Source: a virus
DNA: 16,067 nucleotides
Strand: one strand, 5' to 3'
UHGV virus genome: UHGV-0180947
This document shows, in pieces, positions 5,433 to 16,067 of this stretch (positions within the stretch are counted from its first letter, which is position 1; every line of letters starts with the position of its first letter). The notes beneath the pieces were generated by a model. The model was not told the DNA's origin. It ran no database searches and saw only the letters and a list, made by a program, of their open reading frames with translations. The position numbers were made by a program, and so were the translations under genes.

Positions 5433-5938
5433 TTCTGCCCCCACAAACAAACTTCACGCTCAATCTCGCGGCGAGTTACCAGGCCTTTCCACTGCTTGCC
5501 CTTGGCGTAAGTCCAGCGGCGCAGCTGGTCGCACGCACCTTTCTGGTCGCCCTGGTTGATTTTGCGCAGCAGCGTGGAGGTCTGGAAGTTTCCAGCGCCG
5601 ACGTTATACGCGAATGAGTACAGAGCCCCGCGCATTATTTCGGGGATCGGCTTCTGGATGTATGGGTTAATCTGGCGGGCAACGGTGTTCAGGTCTTTGC
5701 TGAGTAGCGCACGGCATTCAGCCTCGGTGTACTTCTTGCCGAGCATGATATCTTTGCCAGTGTGGCCATAACAGACCGTCCAGACGCCTACCACATCCTG
5801 ATAAGGAACATATCGCACACCTTCAAGACCATCGTTACCGGTTGGGCCAGTGATGAGCGCAGAGGCAATGGCTATGGCGCCACCGCCGCCGGCGATCACG
5901 CCAATCAGTTTATTCCTCATTGATGGCGTCATGCTCAC
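5429..5938 (-). CDS. SAR endolysin (phage lysozyme with N-terminal signal-anchor-release domain)
   Basis: 169-aa ORF. The Gly/Ala-rich N-terminal segment [51 protein letters not shown] is very close to phage 21 R21 and P1 Lyz and carries the E…D…T catalytic residues. Its start overlaps the holin stop (ATGA). Confidence 0.9.
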
Positions 5939-6249
5939 CCCTGTGTATCACTTGCGATCCGCTTCAAGGCCTCGGTTACCACTTCGGCTGAAGCCGGGCG
6001 GTCACCTCCAGGCTTTGCGGAGACATCAGCCAGATAACTGGCCAACAGCTGCGTGCGTTTTTTCTCTTCATCCAGTCGCTCTCGCTCTTCCTTGCGCTTT
6101 GCGTAATACGTCTTGATTGTGAAGAAGGCAGAGATCAGGGCGCCAATGATGAAGACATAATCCTGCAGACTCAGGACGGAAAAGATACCAAGCAAGGCTG
6201 ACCACCAGTAAGGCAGATTGTGACCATCGGTTGGGTTCATACGTTGCAT
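5935..6249 (-). CDS. Holin (class II / pinholin-like)
   Basis: 104-aa ORF with two hydrophobic segments ([30 protein letters not shown]) and a charged C-terminus, directly upstream of and overlapping the SAR endolysin; strong GGAGGTGA Shine-Dalgarno. Confidence 0.75.
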
Positions 6250-6276: not shown

Positions 6277-6843
6277 CTATCTGTAGTCAGTAAAAGGTTC
6301 AGGGCCGTCGGGCTGATTTTCCGGGGATACCTTTCCCTGTTTTTGGGGATGGTTATCCCTGTTTTCAGGGATGGTTGGCGCGGCTATTCTGCTATCCCTA
6401 ATTTCAGGGATGGTGATAACCTGCGTTTCAACTTCAGCGACCGGAAAACTCACCGGACATTTAGGGCATTTCGGTTTGGTATAAGCCCATGCATCCAGAC
6501 AGGTGTTGATCCCGATGTATCGTGTTTGCCCAATCCTGCGAACCTTGATGATGTTGCGATAAGCAAGGCTGAGAACCGCTTCAGAAACGTGCTTAACCGC
6601 CAGCATGGTTTTGTCAGCGATGAGGCTGTTAGCGATCCGGTCTTCTTTTTTCGACCAGCCATACGTCAGGCGAACAATTGCATTCAGCACGCGAAATTCG
6701 CGCCCCGAAAGCTCCACTACACACAAGGCGTCCTGAATCTGGTTAGCAAGGCGCAGATAGCCATTGTCCAGATCAGCCATGCGACTCTCCTGCTGTACCT
6801 TTTCCGGCACAGGGAAATTGATTACTTCGGCAGTATTTGCCAT
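6277..6843 (-). CDS. O: Lambda-O-like replication initiator, N-terminal DNA-binding domain plus origin linker only
   Basis: N-terminus MANTAEVINF…RMADLDNGYLRLAN…LSGREFRVLNAIVRLTYGWSKKEDRI aligns with lambda O (…RNVADLDDGYARLSN…LTKRQFKVLLAILRKTYGWNKPMDRI). It is 188 aa against 299 in lambda O, and the C-terminal P-interaction domain is absent. Confidence 0.8.
   Translation of the reverse strand: MANTAEVINFPVPEKVQQESRMADLDNGYLRLANQIQDALCVVELSGREFRVLNAIVRLTYGWSKKEDRIANSLIADKTMLAVKHVSEAVLSLAYRNIIKVRRIGQTRYIGINTCLDAWAYTKPKCPKCPVSFPVAEVETQVITIPEIRDSRIAAPTIPENRDNHPQKQGKVSPENQPDGPEPFTDYR
6317..6413. repeat. Origin iterons (ori-lambda-like) inside the O-like gene
   Basis: Three near-identical 19-bp palindromic repeats: TCCCTGTTTTTGGGGATGG (6334-6352), TCCCTGTTTTCAGGGATGG (6356-6374), TCCCTAATTTCAGGGATGG (6395-6413), plus a degenerate copy near 6317-6331. 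Lambda iterons have the form TCCCTC…GAGGGA. Confidence 0.7.
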
Positions 6844-7448: not shown

Positions 7449-7516
7449 AAACAATACCACAAGTATTAAACATTGCAATACCGCGAGTATTTTTAAAATA
7501 AGAACATTGGTATTAC
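7449..7516. promoter_or_regulatory. Operator cluster (OR1-OR3-like) with divergent promoters for cro and cI
   Basis: 15-bp inverted repeats AATACCACAAGTATT (7453-7467) and AATACCGCGAGTATT (7477-7491), and a degenerate AAGAACATTGGTATT (7500-7514), spaced about 24 bp apart. A TTGCAA -35-like hexamer lies in the middle site and a TATTGT -10 candidate for the cro strand in the cro-proximal site. Exact promoter hexamers are tentative. Confidence 0.6.
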
Positions 7517-7525
7517 TATTTGAAA

Positions 7526-8236
7526 ATGGAAAAGAAAAAGACACTGACATCGGCTCAGATCGCTGACGCAGAAAGGCTGAAAGCCCTCTATGAAGCCAAG
7601 AAAAAAGAGCTTGGGATAACACAGCAATCAATAGCTGACATGCTAGACATATCTCAGGGGGGCGTTGGGCATTACTTGAATGGCAGGAATGCCCTTAATG
7701 CTGCCGTGGCTGCTGTTTTTGCCAGAGCCCTCCAGGTGGATGTCTCTGATTTTAGCCCCAGCCTTGCGAAAGAAATATCTGCAATGAGTGCTTCCGCTAC
7801 ATCGAATGCCAAGTATGCAGGCCAGTACACCCAAGGCATTAAATACCCTGTATTAAGCAAGATTCAGGCTGGGCATTGGTCGGAAGCGTGCGAGCCGTAT
7901 GCACTTAAAGATATCGATCTATGGCTAGAATCAGACGCTCACATCCAGGGGGATGCGTTCTGGTTGTTGGTCGAGGGGGAATCCATGACTGCCCCGGTCG
8001 GGCTCAGCATACCAGAGGGTACCTACGTTTTGTTTGATACCGGCCGAGAGCCAGTAAATGGCAGCCTTGTGATCGCAAAGCTATCCGAATCAAACGAAGC
8101 GACATTCAAAAAGCTGATTATTGATGGGGGCCAGAAGTACCTGAAGGGCTTAAACCCTCAATGGCCATTGGTTCCCATCAACGGAAACTGTCGAATCATT
8201 GGTGTGGCAGTAGAAACTAAGTTAAGGCTTGTGTGA
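7526..8236 (+). CDS. cI: CI-type repressor (HTH plus S24 LexA-like autopeptidase domain)
   Basis: Aligns with lambda CI over its whole length (…LTSAQIADAERLKALYEAKKKELGITQQSIADMLDISQGGVGHYLNGRNALNA…, …FWLLVEGESMTAP…, …TFKKLI…), including the Ser and Lys of the autocleavage dyad. ATG at 7526 with almost no leader; the ORF track's TTG at 7520 is the upstream alternative. Confidence 0.9.
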   Translation: MEKKKTLTSAQIADAERLKALYEAKKKELGITQQSIADMLDISQGGVGHYLNGRNALNAAVAAVFARALQVDVSDFSPSLAKEISAMSASATSNAKYAGQYTQGIKYPVLSKIQAGHWSEACEPYALKDIDLWLESDAHIQGDAFWLLVEGESMTAPVGLSIPEGTYVLFDTGREPVNGSLVIAKLSESNEATFKKLIIDGGQKYLKGLNPQWPLVPINGNCRIIGVAVETKLRLV

Positions 8237-8328: not shown

Positions 8329-8616
8329 TTGAATTTTGGAGATAAACAATTGACTGAACGAAACCCGTCACTTACCCCTCAGCACATGACTGCGACCTCA
8401 ACCATTTTGACTCCTGGAAAGGATGAGGTTGTAATTACGTTTTACTCTCATGAATTTACTTATCTTTTACCAGAAAACGTTCAACCGCAAACTGGCATTC
8501 AGGTTAAAGTAGATCTGAGGCCTGAGATTGGTATTTCACTTACAACAGACCAAGCAATTGCGCTTACGAAGGCTCTTAAAACCAATTTGGAAGCGAATGG
8601 ACTTTGGAAACAGTAA
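8329..8616 (+). CDS. Hypothetical protein, first gene downstream of cI
   Basis: ORF-track TTG start at 8329; an in-frame TTG at 8350 with a GGAG Shine-Dalgarno 8 nt upstream is the more plausible start (88 aa). No family recognised. Looks markedly AT-rich against the structural genes. Confidence 0.45.
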   Translation: MNFGDKQLTERNPSLTPQHMTATSTILTPGKDEVVITFYSHEFTYLLPENVQPQTGIQVKVDLRPEIGISLTTDQAIALTKALKTNLEANGLWKQ

Positions 8617-9152
8617 ATCCTGGTTCGGATAATACAACTGTTACGCCTTCAAGTGGTAAGGCGGGATTTGTTATGCCGGGAATTATGGTTAGCGCAGCAT
8701 TAGCCGCGTCGATGGCGCCTTCCTATGGAAGCGTACCTCAGTACCAAATTGCTTTTGAAGATGCTAGTCTTACCAGTAGACCATATGACAAATTTACCAG
8801 TCTGCCGCTGGATAAAGAGACCGAATCACATGGAAGCAGTGTAAACTTGGAGGCCGATGTGAGCTCAGCAAGCAGAGAGGAGATCGACGCAAAACTGGCC
8901 TTGACAAAGGCTGAGATTGAACTATCTCAGGCTCATAACTTTTCGTCAATTGAAAAGCTATTGATTGAAGTTAAAGGAGAAATAGCGTCTTTACGGGGAG
9001 AGCTGTCTGGTAATAAAGATGCTGTCTCTGGGCAAATAGACGGGCTAAAAACATCTATTTCAACGATGCAATGGATGGTGGGGACTGTTCTTGCCATGAT
9101 GGGTATTGCTGTCGCTATTTTAGCCATTCCCGGAATCGATAAACTCCTGTGA
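8604..9152 (+). CDS. Hypothetical coiled-coil protein with one C-terminal transmembrane helix
   Basis: ORF-track TTG at 8604; an ATG at 8673 would give 159 aa. Central region (…EEIDAKLALTKAEIELSQAHNFSSIEKLLIEVKGEIASLRGELSGNKDAVSGQIDGLKTSIST…) is predicted coiled coil, followed by MQWMVGTVLAMMGIAVAILAIPGI. A terminator follows. Confidence 0.5.
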   Translation: METVNPGSDNTTVTPSSGKAGFVMPGIMVSAALAASMAPSYGSVPQYQIAFEDASLTSRPYDKFTSLPLDKETESHGSSVNLEADVSSASREEIDAKLALTKAEIELSQAHNFSSIEKLLIEVKGEIASLRGELSGNKDAVSGQIDGLKTSISTMQWMVGTVLAMMGIAVAILAIPGIDKLL

Positions 9153-9184: not shown

Positions 9185-9463
9185 CTGCCCTACTCTTCCC
9201 GCAACATCAGCACATCCAGTGCCAGCTCCACAGCCAGATCGACCTGGTCTTCCTGTCACAACACCTGAATCATCTCTATCAGCGCCTCTCTTGAGGGCTC
9301 GCGCTTCTCAACCAGCAGCTGCATAACCGCTATCCCGATAACCTGCGCTATCTGCGGGTGCATTTCTGCGAAAAACTCATCCTCATTTGACATGCCAACA
9401 CCCCTTTATGATTTTTTTTTGAGCATAACAGCACTTTTTACAAAAATAAATTAACTTTAAAAT

Positions 9464-9533
9464 CATACCTTTAGTATTTTTATTAAATATCATAATACTG
9501 GCGGTATTGATATAAAATAATACCCGGAGTATT
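9464..9533. promoter_or_regulatory. Second operator cluster (OL-like) upstream of the plus-strand early operon
   Basis: Same half-site family as the cI/cro region: AATACTGGCGGTATT (9494-9508), AATACCCGGAGTATT (9519-9533), and a degenerate CATACCTTTAGTATT (9464-9478), set in an AT-rich region. Confidence 0.55.
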
Positions 9534-9614
9534 ATCATCTCATCCAAACAACACCGGCAACGCCGGGGTGAAGTCAAAACGTCCCGTTAGCCGCGATAAG
9601 GCAAAGGTGAAGAG

Positions 9615-9731
9615 ATGATCCGCGAAGAAGATAAAACCGAGTGGTTTAAGTTTCTGGCACACGCATTCGCCATCGTCGTATGCGTACTGATAGCAAGCGC
9701 GTTCTGCCTGATGCCTGGTGGTTCAGCATGA
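9615..9731 (+). CDS. Short hydrophobic peptide (38 aa)
   Basis: Below the ORF-track cutoff. ATG with a GGTGAAGAG Shine-Dalgarno-like stretch upstream; product MIREEDKTEWFKFLAHAFAIVVCVLIASAFCLMPGGSA has one predicted transmembrane helix. First ORF after the OL-like operators. Confidence 0.35.
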   Translation: MIREEDKTEWFKFLAHAFAIVVCVLIASAFCLMPGGSA

Positions 9732-9838
9732 GCAGAAACGGCATTCGTTCACTGATTTACTGCCTGCTGATCTGCGGCATTATCTGGACAGCGTTGATTA
9801 TCAAAATTCTGCACGTTACGGGGGTGTTCAATGGTTAG
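9728..9838 (+). CDS. Short hydrophobic peptide (36 aa)
   Basis: Below the ORF-track cutoff. Its ATG overlaps the previous stop (ATGA); product MSRNGIRSLIYCLLICGIIWTALIIKILHVTGVFNG is a single predicted transmembrane helix. Confidence 0.3.
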   Translation: MSRNGIRSLIYCLLICGIIWTALIIKILHVTGVFNG

Positions 9839-10037
9839 TCATCACTACGGTACACAGACAGTAAACCGCGGCGCAGTTCAGCCGGGGATGCTTGTAAAAC
9901 ACAAAGACTCAACCTGGACCGCATCTGCTAACGCACGCGGTCGCCTGTATCTTCACCGTGGCATCGAACGTACCTACACCAAAGATTTGCTGGTTGAGGT
10001 TTATCTAAACGGTTTAGGTCATGGCCTTAGCCATTAA
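9831..10037 (+). CDS. Hypothetical small basic protein (68 aa)
   Basis: ORF-track ORF whose start overlaps the end of the preceding peptide ORF by 8 nt; no family recognised. Confidence 0.4.
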   Translation: MVSHHYGTQTVNRGAVQPGMLVKHKDSTWTASANARGRLYLHRGIERTYTKDLLVEVYLNGLGHGLSH

Positions 10038-10048
10038 CGGAGTGAGTT

Positions 10049-10210
10049 ATGCAGGAGAAAAAATGCGCGTACTGCCGCAAGCCGATCAAGCAAGGGAAGG
10101 AAGTTAAAAACGAACTGCTCTTTATCCACGGCACGCAGTTGAAACGCGAGCAACGTGATTACTGTTCAGTACGTTGCGCTTCGTTCGACCAGATGGCCCA
10201 CGAAGCATAA
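10049..10210 (+). CDS. Small Cys-rich (zinc-ribbon-like) protein (53 aa)
   Basis: Below the ORF-track cutoff. ATG at 10049 with a GGAGTGAG Shine-Dalgarno-like stretch upstream; product MQEKKCAYCRKPIKQGKEVKNELLFIHGTQLKREQRDYCSVRCASFDQMAHEA has CxxC and CxxxC pairs. Confidence 0.45.
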   Translation: MQEKKCAYCRKPIKQGKEVKNELLFIHGTQLKREQRDYCSVRCASFDQMAHEA

Positions 10211-10348
10211 CGAAAACCCCGCGCAAGGCGGGATTCACGTCCGGTGCCACCGACCAAAGTTACACCGGAATTTATACCAAACCAAAAAACATCCAATGGG
10301 CGCTATCTCTGGCCCGGGGATTCTAACACTCAAAAAAGAGGATCTCAC

Positions 10349-13183
10349 ATGGAATTTTTCCATCTGATAAAAGCCAGTCAGAAGTCTGGCAAGAAAGATG
10401 CAGTGATTTGGTTCACTGCGAAAAGTGTAGCGCGCGCCAATCTCCAACTCGATGTGGCACTGGAAGAAGCCGGAATTGAAGAAACTGGCCGCGGTAAAGA
10501 TTATGCCAAACCAATCCGCACCGATTTCCCGGTATATGACGACCTGCCGGAAGAAGGCGCAGTGGATTACACCTGGTGCAAACGCTACGAACTGCAGAAC
10601 GATGACCGCACCTGGCTGCCAAAAGTCACAGCTGAAAACTCTGACGAGAAAACGGCTCAGACCGTTGATAGTCACATAACTACTGAGTCAACGCTGCCAG
10701 AAACCGCTGGCATCACGCTGGACGAACACGACGACGACTCAACCCTCTACCCGGTAGTGCAGATGCCGTTTCGTAAGCAACTGCTTTCCCAGTTCACCGC
10801 CGACGAACTGCGCCACCACGTAACCCGCGAAGAGTACGAAGCTATCGGCGCGCTGGAGATGGACACTGATAACAGTTACGTCCAGAACTTGCTGTTAGCT
10901 GCTGAGAACTGCCCGGAAGTGAAGGGTTACGACACCAAAGACCTGTGGCGCTACACCGATGCCATTCGCAAAGTGTTCAGCCAGGACAAGCGTCACGAAC
11001 TCGCGCTGGTACTCCGTTTCACCAGAATGTGGGCGGCGACTGATTACATTGACCGTGGCATCCTGGCGCGTGAATGGGCTGCCGGTAATCACATCAGTAG
11101 TGTTCAGCGCACTGACGCAGGTACCAATGCCGATGGTGGATATGTCACCGACCGCGGCGAAGGTGCGCATCACACGCTGGACACACTGGATCTGGAGATC
11201 GCCTGTGCCCTGCTGCCGATGGATTTCAACCACCTTGAGATCCCGGGCAGCATTCACCGTCGCGCCAAAGAAATCGTGGCGAAAAAAGAAGAGCCCTGGA
11301 AATCATGGAGCGCCCTTCTGCGTAACCAGCCTGGCGTTCTGTCGGTAAACCGTGCGGCCATTTTCAACCTGGTACGGATCGCACCGGAAAACATTCATCG
11401 TACGCCGGCGGCCCATCTGGAGTTCGTTAACCAGACCATGACCGCTGAGTTTAACGCCGCAACTGAACTGATGCCCCTGCGCGCGTCCGCGGTTCAGACG
11501 CAAGTAGAGGTTGAGGAACCAACAGCTCAGCCGCAGGTCGCGAACCTCGGCGGTGGCATGTTCTCCATCAATGGCCTGTTGAGTGGAAATACTAACCCGG
11601 TCATCAATATTCCCTCAAATGAAGCAGAAAAACCGGAAACCGTAGTGGAGACCACCAGCGATGTGCAGATGGAAGCGACTCAGCCAGAGAAAGACAAAAC
11701 TGTTGATACGGTACCACCAGGCGAAAGCGCTGATGCAACTGATCCGCAAACAGATACCCTGAACCCGGCTGAGGTGCTCTCCGCCGCGGCGCCGGAGCTG
11801 GCGAACGCCACTACGCAGGAATTGACCACCGAAGCATCAGAGGAGAAAGCGAGCGCGCCGGAAGAGCAACCTTCACAACCGGTCCCGGAATACCCGGCGT
11901 ACTTCGAACCGGGCCGCTATGAAGGCGTGCCGAATGACGTTTATCACGCGGCGAACGGGATCAGTTCCACCCAGGTGAAGGATGCCAGGGTCAGCCTGAT
12001 GTACTTCAACGCGCGCCACGTCGCCAAAACTATCCCGCGGGCCCCTTCCAAGGTGCTGGACATGGGTAATCTGGTTCACGCCCTGGCGCTGCAGCCTGAA
12101 AACCTTGAGGCAGAGTTCAGCGTGGAGCCGGAGATCCCGGAAGATGCTTTTACTACCACCGCCACCCTGCGCGAGTTCATCGATTCGCACAACGCCACCC
12201 TGCCGGCACTGCTGAGCACTGACGATATCAAAGCGCTGCTTGAAGAGCACAACGCCACCCTGCCCGCGCAGCTGCCGCTGGGCGCCAGCCTGGAGGAAAC
12301 GGCCCAGAGCTATATGGCTTTGCCGGCAGAGTACCAGCGCATCGAGCCAGACCAGAAGCAGACCGCAGCAGCTATGAAAGCCTGCATCAAAGAGTACAAC
12401 GCCACCCTGCCCGCGCCGGTTAAAACCAGCGGCAGCCGCGATGCGCTGCTTGAACAGCTGGCAATCATCAACCCTGACCTGGTGGAGCAGGAAGCCCAGA
12501 AGCCGGCACCGCTTAAGGTGTCCGGCAGCAAAGCGGAAATGATCCAAGCGATTAAGTCGGTTAAACCCGATGCCGTATTCGCCGACGAGCTGCTGGACGC
12601 CTGGCGAGAAAATCCGGGCGACAAGATTCTGGTGACGCGCCAGCAGCTGGTGACCGCCCAGGCCATCCAGTCGGCCCTGCTGGCACACCCGACCGCAGGC
12701 ATGCTGCTAACCCACCCGAGCCGCGCCGTTGAGGTGAGCTACTTTGGCTTTGACGAGGAGACGGGACTGGAAGTTCGTGTGCGCCCTGACCTTGAGATCG
12801 ACCTAGACGGCGTGCGTATCGGTGCTGACCTGAAAACCATCAGCATGTGGAATGTTAAGCAGGAAAGCCTGCGCGCCAGGCTACACCGGGAAATTATTGA
12901 ACGTGATTATCACCTGAGCGCGGCTATGTACTGCGAAACCGCAGCGCTGGATCAGTTCTTCTGGATTTTCGTCAACAAAGACGAGAACTACCACTGGATC
13001 GCCATCATCGAGGCATCCGCTGAACTACTGGAGCTGGGTATGCTCGAGTACCGCAAAGCGATGCACAATATCGCAACCGGATTCGACACAGGTGAATGGC
13101 CAGCGCCAATCACTGCTGACTACACCGACGAACTGAACGACTTCGACCTGCGCCGCCTTGAAGCGCTGCGTACTCAGGCATAA
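10349..13183 (+). CDS. recE: RecE-like exodeoxyribonuclease VIII
   Basis: 944 aa from the ATG at 10349 (AAGAGGA Shine-Dalgarno); the ORF-track start at 10244 is an upstream GTG extension. N-terminal and central regions align with Rac RecE (…DAVIWFTAKS…NFPVYDDLPEEGAVDYTW…, …DRGEGAHHTLD…), and the C-terminus has a PD-(D/E)xK nuclease core. Confidence 0.85.
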   Translation: MEFFHLIKASQKSGKKDAVIWFTAKSVARANLQLDVALEEAGIEETGRGKDYAKPIRTDFPVYDDLPEEGAVDYTWCKRYELQNDDRTWLPKVTAENSDEKTAQTVDSHITTESTLPETAGITLDEHDDDSTLYPVVQMPFRKQLLSQFTADELRHHVTREEYEAIGALEMDTDNSYVQNLLLAAENCPEVKGYDTKDLWRYTDAIRKVFSQDKRHELALVLRFTRMWAATDYIDRGILAREWAAGNHISSVQRTDAGTNADGGYVTDRGEGAHHTLDTLDLEIACALLPMDFNHLEIPGSIHRRAKEIVAKKEEPWKSWSALLRNQPGVLSVNRAAIFNLVRIAPENIHRTPAAHLEFVNQTMTAEFNAATELMPLRASAVQTQVEVEEPTAQPQVANLGGGMFSINGLLSGNTNPVINIPSNEAEKPETVVETTSDVQMEATQPEKDKTVDTVPPGESADATDPQTDTLNPAEVLSAAAPELANATTQELTTEASEEKASAPEEQPSQPVPEYPAYFEPGRYEGVPNDVYHAANGISSTQVKDARVSLMYFNARHVAKTIPRAPSKVLDMGNLVHALALQPENLEAEFSVEPEIPEDAFTTTATLREFIDSHNATLPALLSTDDIKALLEEHNATLPAQLPLGASLEETAQSYMALPAEYQRIEPDQKQTAAAMKACIKEYNATLPAPVKTSGSRDALLEQLAIINPDLVEQEAQKPAPLKVSGSKAEMIQAIKSVKPDAVFADELLDAWRENPGDKILVTRQQLVTAQAIQSALLAHPTAGMLLTHPSRAVEVSYFGFDEETGLEVRVRPDLEIDLDGVRIGADLKTISMWNVKQESLRARLHREIIERDYHLSAAMYCETAALDQFFWIFVNKDENYHWIAIIEASAELLELGMLEYRKAMHNIATGFDTGEWPAPITADYTDELNDFDLRRLEALRTQA

Positions 13184-13188
13184 GGGGA

Positions 13189-14307
13189 ATGATGATGGAA
13201 AACACGAATATCGTAACCGCTGAACAGCAGACTCCAAACACGATCTCAGCCAGCAATGCCATTTTCAACGTGCAGGCTTTAACCCAGCTTCAGTCTGTCG
13301 CCGGGTTGATGGCACAGGCAGCCGTAACGGTGCCTGAGCACCTCCGCGGCAATCCGGCAGACTGCATGGCCATCATCATGCAGGCGATGCAGTGGGGTAT
13401 GAACCCTTACGCCGTGGCGCAAAAGACGCACCTGGTTAACGGTGTCCTGGGATACGAAGCGCAACTGGTTAATGCGGTGATCTCCAGCTCAAACGCCATC
13501 GTTGGCCGCTTTCACTATGAGTACGAGGGCGACTGGTCGAAATGTGCCAGCAGCCGCGAGATAACCGTTAAAAAGCCTGCGAAAGGTGGCGGGACGTACG
13601 ACAAGAAAGAAATGGTACGCGGTTGGGAAAGTGCTGATGAACAAGGACTGTCGGTACGGGTAGGTGCCGTTATTCGCGGTGAAAGTGATATCACCTGGGG
13701 AGAGCCTGTTTTCCTCTCCAGCGTAATCACACGTAATTCTCCACTTTGGGTATCAAACCCGAAACAGCAGATCGCTTATCTGGCACTCAAATACTGGGCG
13801 CGCCTGTATTGCCCTGCAGTTGTTCTTGGTGTGTACACCCCTGATGAGATTGAACAGCGCACAGAAAAAGAGATCAACCCAACGCCGCAACGCGTTAGCC
13901 TGGCTGATATCTCAGGTGACACCGTCACAACCACGCAAAGCGCACAGGAATCGTCGGTAAATGTCGGCTCTCTTGCCGATGATTTCCGCGAACGCATCGA
14001 ATCTGCTCAGGACGTGGATAGCGCCAAATCGCTGCGTGCCGACATTGAAACGGCGAAAGCTACGCTGGGATCCGCACTATTCACCGAGCTGAAAAACAAA
14101 GCCGTAAAGCGTTATTACCTAGTGGATGCACGCAACAAGGTTGAGGAGGCTATTAAATCCCTGCCCCAGCCCGACGAGCCGCATGCAGCCGAACGGTTCG
14201 CTGAAGCCGAGCGCATGCTTGCATCTTCAAAGCGTCACTTAGGCGATGAACTGCACGATCAATTCAGCATCACCCTGGCGGATATGAAACCGGAATACGT
14301 GGCCTGA
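13189..14307 (+). CDS. recT: RecT/Bet-family single-strand annealing recombinase
   Basis: Immediately follows recE. Motif …PADCMAIIMQAMQWGMNPYAVAQKTHLVNGVLGYE… resembles lambda Bet (…QFIALLIVANQYGLNPWTKEIYAF…). The third ATG, at 13195, is best placed relative to the AAGGGG Shine-Dalgarno. Confidence 0.8.
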   Translation: MMMENTNIVTAEQQTPNTISASNAIFNVQALTQLQSVAGLMAQAAVTVPEHLRGNPADCMAIIMQAMQWGMNPYAVAQKTHLVNGVLGYEAQLVNAVISSSNAIVGRFHYEYEGDWSKCASSREITVKKPAKGGGTYDKKEMVRGWESADEQGLSVRVGAVIRGESDITWGEPVFLSSVITRNSPLWVSNPKQQIAYLALKYWARLYCPAVVLGVYTPDEIEQRTEKEINPTPQRVSLADISGDTVTTTQSAQESSVNVGSLADDFRERIESAQDVDSAKSLRADIETAKATLGSALFTELKNKAVKRYYLVDARNKVEEAIKSLPQPDEPHAAERFAEAERMLASSKRHLGDELHDQFSITLADMKPEYVA

Positions 14308-14345: not shown

Positions 14346-14588
14346 ATGCGACTGATCAATCGAGGAAGTAAGCAATCACCTTTAGCTCGCCAAGCATGCG
14401 ACATCGCGCTGGCAGCTCACTTGCAAACATATGGCGACTATGGGCGAAGCAAGATGAAAGAGACTTATACGGTGAAGGTTGAAGGCGTGAAAGTCTGGGT
14501 GGAGGTGGTGAACCGAAAGGCGAGCTACGTGGCCACAGCGATGACCGGCATGCGCCGTCTCCGCTCCCTGCCCGGGCAGGTTGGTTGA
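14346..14588 (+). CDS. Hypothetical small protein (80 aa)
   Basis: ORF with a CAAGGAG Shine-Dalgarno, between recT and the excisionase, where Rac carries ydaC and ralR; no family recognised from sequence. Confidence 0.5.
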   Translation: MRLINRGSKQSPLARQACDIALAAHLQTYGDYGRSKMKETYTVKVEGVKVWVEVVNRKASYVATAMTGMRRLRSLPGQVG

Positions 14589-14629
14589 AAAAGATTTTGA
14601 ATGGCCCGAACGGGCAACTGGAGAGAGCT

Positions 14630-14827
14630 ATGGATGATATTTTGGTAACGTCAGACCTGACCAGTCGCTACAAAATTTCACGCAAAACCCTTTGGTCATG
14701 GCAAAGTGCAGACACAATGCCTCGGGGCTTCGTATGCCCGTTCCCACCCCCTGACTGGCCCGGCAACCCTAACCGCTGGCGCTCTGAGTCAATCAAAGAG
14801 TGGGAGGATAAAAAGAAGATAAATTAA
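14630..14827 (+). CDS. AlpA-family excisionase / transcriptional regulator
   Basis: 65 aa from the ATG at 14630 (GGAGAG Shine-Dalgarno). The sequence [26 protein letters not shown]… is typical of AlpA/Xis proteins paired with P4-type integrases; its 3' end converges on the integrase stop. Confidence 0.7.
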
Positions 14828-16017
14828 CTGAAGGGCTCTCCGATGATCTCTTCAAGATGGCTCTGCCAAACGCGGAGCCAGTGTTTCTGATCATCGATAT
14901 AGTCATGAAGGTTGTAATGCGCCATAACCCCCACCATCTGATGCCCGAGCAGCTTTTCAATTACGTGCGGCGGGCAACCTAACTCAGAGAGATTTGTGGC
15001 TATCGTCCGCCTCATATCATGAAGCGACCACTCTGCCATACCTGTTCCATTCCAAATAGAACGGGCGTAATTGGATGCCACAGGTGAATGAACGGGCGAA
15101 TCTTTGATCCCGCCATCAATTTTACGTTGTGAAGTCACCAGGTGATTGGTGTTTATTTTCTTGAGGTGATTTCTGACCAAGTTAACGGCGGCGTCTGAGA
15201 GCCCCCTTCTAATATGTACCCGAGTTTTATAACTGCCCGCAGGCACGACCCACTCATTATCATCCAATCGAAACCATGATCTCTCACTAAGTCGAATCTC
15301 AGCCGTACGGCATCCGGTAAGCATAATAAATTTCACCAGGAAAACGGACTCTATCGACATATGGCTTTTCAACCACTGATAGATTTTGCGCAGATCGTCA
15401 TCGTCCATCCTGCGAGTTCTCTTTTTAGGCTTTTGCCCGACATCAGATGGCAGTAATCCCTCGAGTGGGTTTGAGGCGATCACACTTCTGTTAACGCAGA
15501 ACCTAAACGCCCGTTTGCACAGCGAAAGCATGTAATGAGCCATCACCCTGCTTTCTATAGAATCGAAGACGTTGATCCAGTGCATTTTCGCTGTGTTATC
15601 GACTTTGACATTCTTCATCGGTTCGGCGATATGTTTCTCAAACACCTGGCGATAGTAATCGACTTTAACTAGCCCGTTAGCGATACAGTGCCTTTCAATC
15701 CAGTAATTGAACGCTTCGGCAACGGACATCGCTTCCTGTCGGGTCTGCTTATCCAGCTTCACCTGCTCTCGCGGATCCAGTCCCTCAGTTAACCAGTTTC
15801 TGAATTGTTGGCGACGCTCTCTTGCCTGGGTGATACTCATTGCAGGATAATCACCAACATTGAGTTTTACCGCTTTACCGGCCCAGCGATACCGATAGAA
15901 AAATGATATTTTTCCGGCCTGGCTGATTCTGGCGTTGAGCCCGTGCGAATCAGAAATAATCTCGATATCATCTCTTTTCTTGCCGAGCGCCTTCCTGAGC
16001 TTTGTGTCGGTGATCAT
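14824..16017 (-). CDS. int: Tyrosine integrase, P4-type
   Basis: N-terminal arm-binding pattern [20 protein letters not shown]…[10 protein letters not shown]…, and a C-terminal catalytic region with the conserved R…HxxR…Y residues (…[11 protein letters not shown]…[18 protein letters not shown]…). The ORF track's GTG start at 16062 is probably an extension; ATG at 16017 or 16032 is more likely. Confidence 0.88.
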
Positions 16018-16067
16018 TGAATGGGTACACATTTTTGTTTTTGGGTACACAAAAGTGTACACAAAGT

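Follow-up and report, generated by a model that had tools for sequence, protein, structure and literature searches.

The virus genome UHGV-0180947, a DNA of 16,067 nucleotides (nt) referred to below as the window, carries on its plus strand an early-left operon that opens with four short, closely packed open reading frames (ORFs). The first two, here called orfA and orfB, encode membrane mini-proteins of 38 and 36 amino acids (aa) with one predicted helix each, followed by a 68-aa KilR-family and a 53-aa YdaE-family protein. We believe, at a probability of about 0.7, that orfA and orfB are independent early membrane effectors in the CI-repressed early-left operon of a Rac/lambda-type prophage.

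Two membrane mini-proteins and their conservation

The four same-strand frames, their coordinates and their lengths (38, 36, 68 and 53 aa) were all reproduced from an earlier, sequence-only reading of the window, which had described them as having overlapping or closely spaced stops and starts. The TGA of orfA and the ATG of orfB share an ATGA overlap, the ATG of the 68-aa frame (kil) lies 8 nt inside orfB (ATGGTTAG), and an 11-nt spacer containing GGAG separates the 68-aa from the 53-aa frame; these junctions bear out an arrangement suited to translational coupling. Each start is preceded by a Shine-Dalgarno (SD) sequence, with duplex energies against the anti-SD of -7.4, -5.6, -9.9 and -6.1 kcal/mol for orfA, orfB, the 68-aa and the 53-aa frame, respectively, on a background of -2.5 +/- 2.5 kcal/mol taken over all ATGs of the window.

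The membrane character proposed for the first two products is borne out by their sequences. Each contains one strongly hydrophobic stretch, with a Kyte-Doolittle maximum over 17 residues of 2.83 in orfA and 2.69 in orfB; among the 44 ATG-initiated window ORFs of 30-45 aa the next-best value is 2.25. The orfA product is built from the N-terminal sequence MIREEDKTEW and a transmembrane (TM) helix, while that of orfB consists of MSRNGIRSL, a TM segment and the C-terminal sequence IKILHVTGVFNG, both ends being conserved; from its basic N-terminus, orfB is predicted to have an N-in/C-out orientation.

Together with the sequence-only reading, a comparison of conservation and dN/dS across related prophages had been suggested, and we carried it out over 98 related loci drawn from phage records, E. 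coli genomes, GTDB species genomes, IMG/VR and assemblies. Both frames are kept, with frame-specific purifying selection. The orfB frame is intact, at exactly 36 codons, in 98/98 loci. Its codons 26-36 have a ratio of nonsynonymous to synonymous change (pN/pS) of 0.10, with synonymous change ongoing, and codons 1-9 in the diverged group have pN = 0 at a pS of 0.21; the TM core between these ends varies freely yet stays hydrophobic, with Kyte-Doolittle values of 2.2-3.0. The orfA frame is found in 94/98 loci as three sequence types (38, 35 and 35-36 aa), which have the N-terminus MIRE(E/H)(D/E)..W in common and differ in their TM helices. It abuts orfB in 82 loci, ending in the ATGA overlap, and in a further 12 loci a PHROG 2201 gene, which likewise ends in ATGA, lies between orfA and orfB. 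Within types, the in-frame pN/pS of orfA is 0.20 (type 1) and 0.43 (type 2), compared with 1.3-3.3 in the other frames (1.9 and 3.3 for type 1), and codons 2-3 vary synonymously. On this comparative evidence both orfA and orfB are genuine protein-coding genes, the case for orfA being in our view the stronger of the two, which is the reverse of annotation practice.

That practice was partly anticipated by the sequence-only reading, which had expected three of the four frames to be missed by annotation. This holds for orfA, which usually is missed: it is left uncalled by PGAP and by the assembly gene callers, although the annotators of the phages Mulock and GZ7 list it, as a "putative membrane protein". 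It does not hold for the others, as the orfB, 68-aa and 53-aa genes are already called in RefSeq/PGAP and in assembly gene calls. A few assemblies contain natural orfA-orfB fusions of 72-74 aa, caused by frameshifts near the 3' end of orfA, which could be sequencing errors or tolerated variants. We considered such fusions (P0005, P0007, P0021) as relics of a fused ancestral gene and rejected this, since they are single-base frameshift variants.

Family searches assign neither peptide to a Kil, cIII, type-I-toxin or defence family in Pfam, NCBIfam, PHROGs or PADLOC; matches to LptF/LptG and UL2 were discarded as sub-threshold hydrophobic noise. The lambda Kil family PF06301, which describes the helix-turn-helix core of Kil, gave no Pfam match to either peptide at E<=0.1, while it does detect a true lambda-Kil homologue in the sister phage L094, and the CIII family PF02061 gave none either. 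Searches of all loci by tblastn returned no match for lambda Kil and nothing below E=2 for lambda CIII, both being insensitive searches that also miss the lambda-Kil homologue of L094. In protein-cluster searches, for which queries with native in-frame extensions were used, orfB is represented by 111 clusters, all named "hypothetical protein", all from Klebsiella or Raoultella and none with a Pfam domain, and orfA type 1 by only 8 clusters. The orfB gene occurs in 30/50,697 phage records, all of them Klebsiella phages, in 366 IMG/VR contigs and in 6/185,579 species genomes, and a HMMER profile scan of 1.84 billion representatives returned 22 orfB-family relatives and nothing else. As far as these searches reach, orfA and orfB are thus two narrow, uncharacterised families confined to lambdoid phages of the Klebsiella/Raoultella type.

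KilR, YdaE and the interchangeable Kil slot

Of the two hydrophobic peptides the sequence-only reading had also said that they resemble Kil. This was not borne out, because the KilR homologue is the soluble 68-aa protein encoded by the third frame. That protein matches the NCBIfam model NF008465 ("FtsZ inhibitor protein") over residues 1-66 (E=7.7e-18, 64 bits), a score below the curated, equivalog-style cutoff of 92 bits, and it is therefore counted as a member of the family and not as an equivalog. It further matches PHROG 294 ("Kil", E=8e-35), is 36% identical to Rac KilR by BLASTP (E=2e-14), has an identical copy in public assemblies on which PF27398 (KilR) is recorded, and is encoded directly upstream of ydaE and recE in the early-left operon. 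The 68-aa protein is a KilR-family homologue and a predicted division inhibitor. Rac KilR has been shown experimentally to inhibit FtsZ and MreB in E. coli; it is cytoplasmic and acts alone when expressed, and the block of the Z ring with filamentation on expression is known for Rac KilR only (PMC12482147).

The fourth frame is also of a known family. Its product scores 99.4 bits against NF041288 (cutoff 35), matches PF27493 and is 50% identical to Rac YdaE; its four cysteines (C6, C9, C39 and C43), which agree with the Cys-rich character noted earlier, form the pattern CxxC...CxxxC. It is a YdaE-family protein, and zinc binding is predicted from the RefSeq name of Rac YdaE, "zinc-binding protein". 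Sequence searches of the PDB with YdaE and KilR found no relatives.

The position taken by KilR in the window is better described as a slot. In 98/98 loci orfB is followed, with a constant 8-nt overlap, by a gene for one of three proteins: a KilR-type protein, a lambda-Kil-type protein (PF06301, 40.5 bits against a cutoff of 27.6 in phage ST405-OXA48phi1.2) or a 64-aa protein of PHROG 3722. The last of these (MANSIPNNGRAVMMRN..., no Pfam family) occurs in L015, L024, L053, L095 and other loci; hhalign gave no relationship between the KilR-type and PHROG 3722 proteins (probability 0.6%), and the 64-aa protein is a candidate for a third type of phage division inhibitor. Behind one and the same orfB sequence type lie unrelated proteins, with which orfB does not co-vary, and the types of orfA, of orfB and of the downstream gene combine freely. 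KilR genes also occur without the peptides. Among the 76 closest IMG/VR KilR genes with a locatable start, orfB precedes 19, and at the other 57 no frame of 20 aa or longer ends where kil begins; neither peptide is present in E. coli relatives with 99% identity from the start codon of kil on, and no small TM ORF was found upstream of kil in Rac, in mEp237 or in the 99%-identical E. coli prophage. Given that KilR functions in the absence of the peptides and that orfB does not co-vary with the Kil type, we take the overlap of orfB with the Kil gene to link their expression and to be a recombination joint, and do not see in it the mark of a physical partnership.

The nucleotide sequence around these genes is a mosaic. 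The window is 99% identical to Rac-like prophages of E. coli exactly from the kil ATG (9831), and upstream lies Klebsiella-phage-type DNA, which shares ≈ 92% identity with E. coli JNQH497 as far as 10032. The mosaic joints (9831 and approximately 10032-10037) coincide with gene overlaps. At other loci optional extra genes with the same ATGA junctions are found at the operon head (L008, L032, L042, L051 and others; 1207-1368 in L095): the PHROG 2201 protein inserted between orfA and orfB has 71-90 aa, and a 53-aa protein beginning MTAKK... lies between the leader and orfA.

The window shares with Rac the gene families, their order and orientation (kilR-ydaE-racC-recE-recT) and their place downstream of the immunity region. 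Unlike the window, Rac lacks orfA and orfB, has ydaG, ydaF, an opposite-strand sieB and the KilS small RNA region upstream of kilR, and carries racC, which is absent here; the stop of Rac kilR abuts the start of ydaE, where the window has its 11-nt spacer. As in the PL operon of lambda, a repressor controls a leftward early operon with triple operators, and recombination genes follow. In contrast to lambda, however, the window has neither an N gene nor nutL and opens directly with orfA; the Kil protein is of the KilR and not the lambda-Kil type, which some sister phages have in this slot (PF06301); and where lambda cIII overlaps kil by 32 nt, orfB overlaps it by 8 nt, CIII having no similarity to the TM peptides orfA and orfB. 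Another close system is Klebsiella phage Mulock (CPT_Mulock_044/043/042, with equivalents in GZ7), in which an orfA of 100% and an orfB of 97% identity are followed by a 68-aa "cell division inhibitor", with the same overlaps as in the window and all three genes annotated; Mulock differs in what follows, a 323-aa protein, GamL and Bet taking the place of YdaE, RecE and RecT.

Operators, leader and the surrounding prophage

The OL-like operators and the OL-controlled operon head proposed by the sequence-only reading both found support. The palindrome AATAC-N5-GTATT (at most one mismatch) occurs in six copies in the window, compared with 0.26 expected. Three lie at the leftward operator (OL) position and two at the rightward operator (OR) position, with a cI-like gene between OL and OR, and two of the OL copies overlap a PL-like sigma-70 promoter, which is the best promoter match in the region, by consensus match only. 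Lambda-type control at OL and PL is thus supported, and the whole is consistent with a repressor-controlled early-left operon that matches the kil region of lambda and Rac. N is not the first element of the operon, as no ORF in 9542-10210 resembles it and the first cistron is orfA.

The leader between the promoter and orfA (CATCCAAACAACA ... GTTAGCCGCGATAAGGCAAAGGTGAAGAGATG) is kept across about 10 different operator (immunity) types (loci L002-L098), and its middle segment exists in two alternative forms. It may serve in regulation or antitermination, or be a mere recombination linker, since neither an N gene nor an Rfam family is present. No Rfam family was matched anywhere in the window, the fold of the leader is not unusually stable (z = 0.19), and the z-scores for the folds of the leader and of the two junctions were 0.2-1.1, with no unusually stable structure; an explanation by structured RNA is therefore unsupported.

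Positions of the features of the window (coordinates in nt; + and - give the strand)
Feature	Position	Strand	Remarks
Head, portal, terminase, lysis, truncated O-like, CII-like and cro-side genes		-	
Two further AATAC-N5-GTATT copies	7453-7491		OR position, with the cro side on one flank and the cI-like repressor gene on the other
LexA/CI-like repressor	7520-8236	+	
Three OL-type operator palindromes	9464-9478, 9494-9508, 9519-9533	+	AATAC-N5-GTATT
PL-like sigma-70 promoter	9507-9535	+	TTGATA, 17-nt spacer, TATTAT; 10/12 consensus positions
5' leader of the early-left transcript	9542-9614	+	Hairpin CCGGC-AAC-GCCGG at 9554-9566; SD of orfA AAGGTGA at 9604-9610
orfA	9615-9731	+	38 aa; first cistron; single-helix membrane mini-protein, family uncharacterised
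orfB	9728-9838	+	36 aa; single-helix membrane mini-protein, family uncharacterised
Third ORF (KilR-family)	9831-10037	+	68 aa; predicted FtsZ/cell-division inhibitor
Fourth ORF (YdaE-family)	10049-10210	+	53 aa; 4 Cys
GC-rich hairpin CCCGC-GCAAG-GCGGG	10218-10232	+	Between ydaE and recE; no T-run
RecE-family exonuclease VIII	10349-13183	+	PF06630, PF12684; NF007259; PHROG 607
RecT-family annealing protein	13189-14307	+	PF03837, 125 bits; PHROG 561
DUF4060 protein		+	Downstream of RecT, followed by the excisionase
Excisionase	14585-14827	+	
Integrase	14824-16062	-	

The prophage around the operon keeps the lambda order of the cI-like, cII-like and cro-side genes, and the CII-like activator matches PHROG 3638 (E=1.5e-48), with PF05269 matches in sister loci. 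The match of the O-like replication gene (6277-6843, 188 aa) to its profiles is limited to their first half, the gene directly adjoins the holin gene (5935-6249), and the P, nin and Q genes are missing; for these reasons the prophage, a mosaic lambdoid one, looks deleted and is probably defective. The excisionase and integrase genes converge and overlap by 4 nt; int of lambda and Rac points in the same direction as the early-left operon. The hairpin between ydaE and recE was not recognised by the terminator scan. In the rexAB position on the plus strand, 3' of the cI-like repressor gene, lie two genes (8329-9152) for proteins of 95 and 182 aa, which belong to PHROG 26809 and PHROG 5820, where no function is assigned; the 182-aa protein has a hydrophobic segment at its C-terminus, and PADLOC matched neither. 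A 45-aa ORF on the minus strand (9256-9393) corresponds to a shortened PHROG 3946 protein, whose intact 67-aa form is found in the sister loci L005-L007, and the identical 45-aa form is called in assembly L099.

Proposed role of the peptides and its alternatives

Under the reading we favour, in which orfA and orfB are independent membrane effectors, loss of the repressor would give rise to one transcript from the PL-like promoter, from which ribosomes would translate orfA, orfB, the KilR-type inhibitor and YdaE in turn, and then RecE and RecT. The orfA and orfB products would insert into the inner membrane, where each may bind and modulate a conserved host inner-membrane protein as a host-takeover effector, and the overlap with the Kil slot would tie their expression to this slot, in the manner of the cIII-kil overlap of lambda. 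To bind and modulate a membrane protein is what most of the small membrane proteins characterised so far do. The identity of the partner is a guess: by analogy we would put the FtsH/HflKC protease system first, because of the cIII-like position, the CII-like gene and the lack of a detectable cIII, and the divisome/elongasome second, giving each of these candidates a small chance of being right.

Several points weigh against this reading. The pN/pS of orfB over the whole gene is just 0.5-0.6, near one off-frame control, so the coding case for orfB rests on its ends, its fixed length and its hydrophobicity; of these, the conserved C-terminus overlaps the ribosome-binding site of kil, and its conservation could therefore partly be at the nucleotide level. 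Furthermore, orfB is never seen without an overlapping Kil-slot gene (98/98), a constant pairing that could reflect a functional tie. The proposed target is a guess because there is no homology to any characterised family, and literature searches on KilR and YdaE, on ribosome profiling of Klebsiella small proteins and on Kil with small membrane proteins turned up nothing on orfA or orfB.

The sequence-only reading had likened the two peptides to type I toxins, and membrane-damaging toxins of the type-I or Kil-like kind, which depolarise the inner membrane or make it permeable and arrest host growth, would indeed be of this shape: Hok, TisB, Ldr and Ibs are similar in size with a single hydrophobic helix, SidA and DidA likewise have 30-40 aa and one such helix, and the peptides would be expressed only after derepression, beside the toxic KilR. 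The likeness stops at size and helix. No homology connects these proteins to orfA or orfB, and no toxin family was matched in Pfam, NCBIfam, PHROGs or PADLOC; neither an antisense RNA nor a stand-alone locus nor the context of an SOS-controlled promoter is seen here, and orfA and orfB are operon-internal cistrons with SD sites that have no promoter of their own, no antisense promoter-like site in 9615-9838, no Rfam small RNA and no stable 5' fold, the lack of these locus hallmarks being a soft negative because consensus scans are weak tests. Moreover, these are early genes of plaque-forming temperate phages, in which an early collapse of the membrane would harm phage development, and the conserved polar ends of orfB suggest specific contacts and not bulk damage. 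We consider a toxin role unlikely. A different role is suggested by the location of orfB, which is that of cIII, upstream of and overlapping the Kil slot: orfB, with or without orfA, may be an analogue of CIII that inhibits or decoys FtsH/HflKC, stabilises the CII-like activator encoded by the phage and favours lysogeny. About 100 related early-left regions yielded no cIII homologue, FtsH is membrane-anchored, and the small membrane peptides SpoVM and MgtR modulate it. However, the analogy is one of position alone, and the cIII tblastn search is insensitive; orfB has no sequence similarity to CIII, whose helix is amphipathic and peripheral, while that of orfB is TM. A CIII-like role is, in our estimate, improbable; if it were true, a class of TM regulators in the role of CIII would control the lysis-lysogeny decision in Klebsiella lambdoid phages that have no recognisable cIII. 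That a new class of TM regulator has replaced CIII, or that PHROG 3722 constitutes a third family of division inhibitors, seems to us doubtful to a like degree.

The constant 8-nt overlap with whichever of the three proteins fills the slot invites the view that orfB is a dedicated partner of Kil (a membrane anchor, chaperone or antidote) and that orfA, orfB and Kil act jointly on the divisome; small single-pass division inhibitors are known elsewhere, namely SidA, DidA and YneA. Against this, a single orfB type precedes unrelated proteins without co-variation, most close KilR genes (57/76) have no upstream peptide, and Rac KilR acts alone and in the cytoplasm (PMC12482147). We consider this view very unlikely. 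The tight overlapping junctions could also mean that orfA and orfB have no function as proteins and are upstream ORFs or chance frames that set the level of kil by coupling or by protection from Rho, the more so as the gene boundaries, themselves mosaic recombination joints, are strongly conserved in nucleotide sequence, and selection on orfB as a whole is weak. Against this stand the frame-specific purifying selection and the hydrophobic helices, kept across variants that share little sequence. Of the four SD sites that of kil also pairs most strongly, and no stable structure hides it, so that translation of kil ought not to depend on coupling, and E. coli relatives carry the 99%-identical kil behind a peptide-free leader. 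We hold a purely regulatory role of the two frames to be highly improbable.

The early-left operon of the window is a routine one of the Rac/lambda type, with KilR and YdaE from families already known. The novelty lies in the comparison: two one-helix mini-proteins, both conserved, have a fixed place at the operon head in at least about 10 heteroimmune lambdoid phages of Klebsiella and Raoultella, and orfB is always overlapped with an interchangeable "Kil slot". Independent early membrane effectors of this size would make orfA and orfB compact candidates for new contacts of phages with a clinically important host at its inner membrane, and orfA illustrates how real genes of 35-38 codons are lost by standard annotation pipelines.

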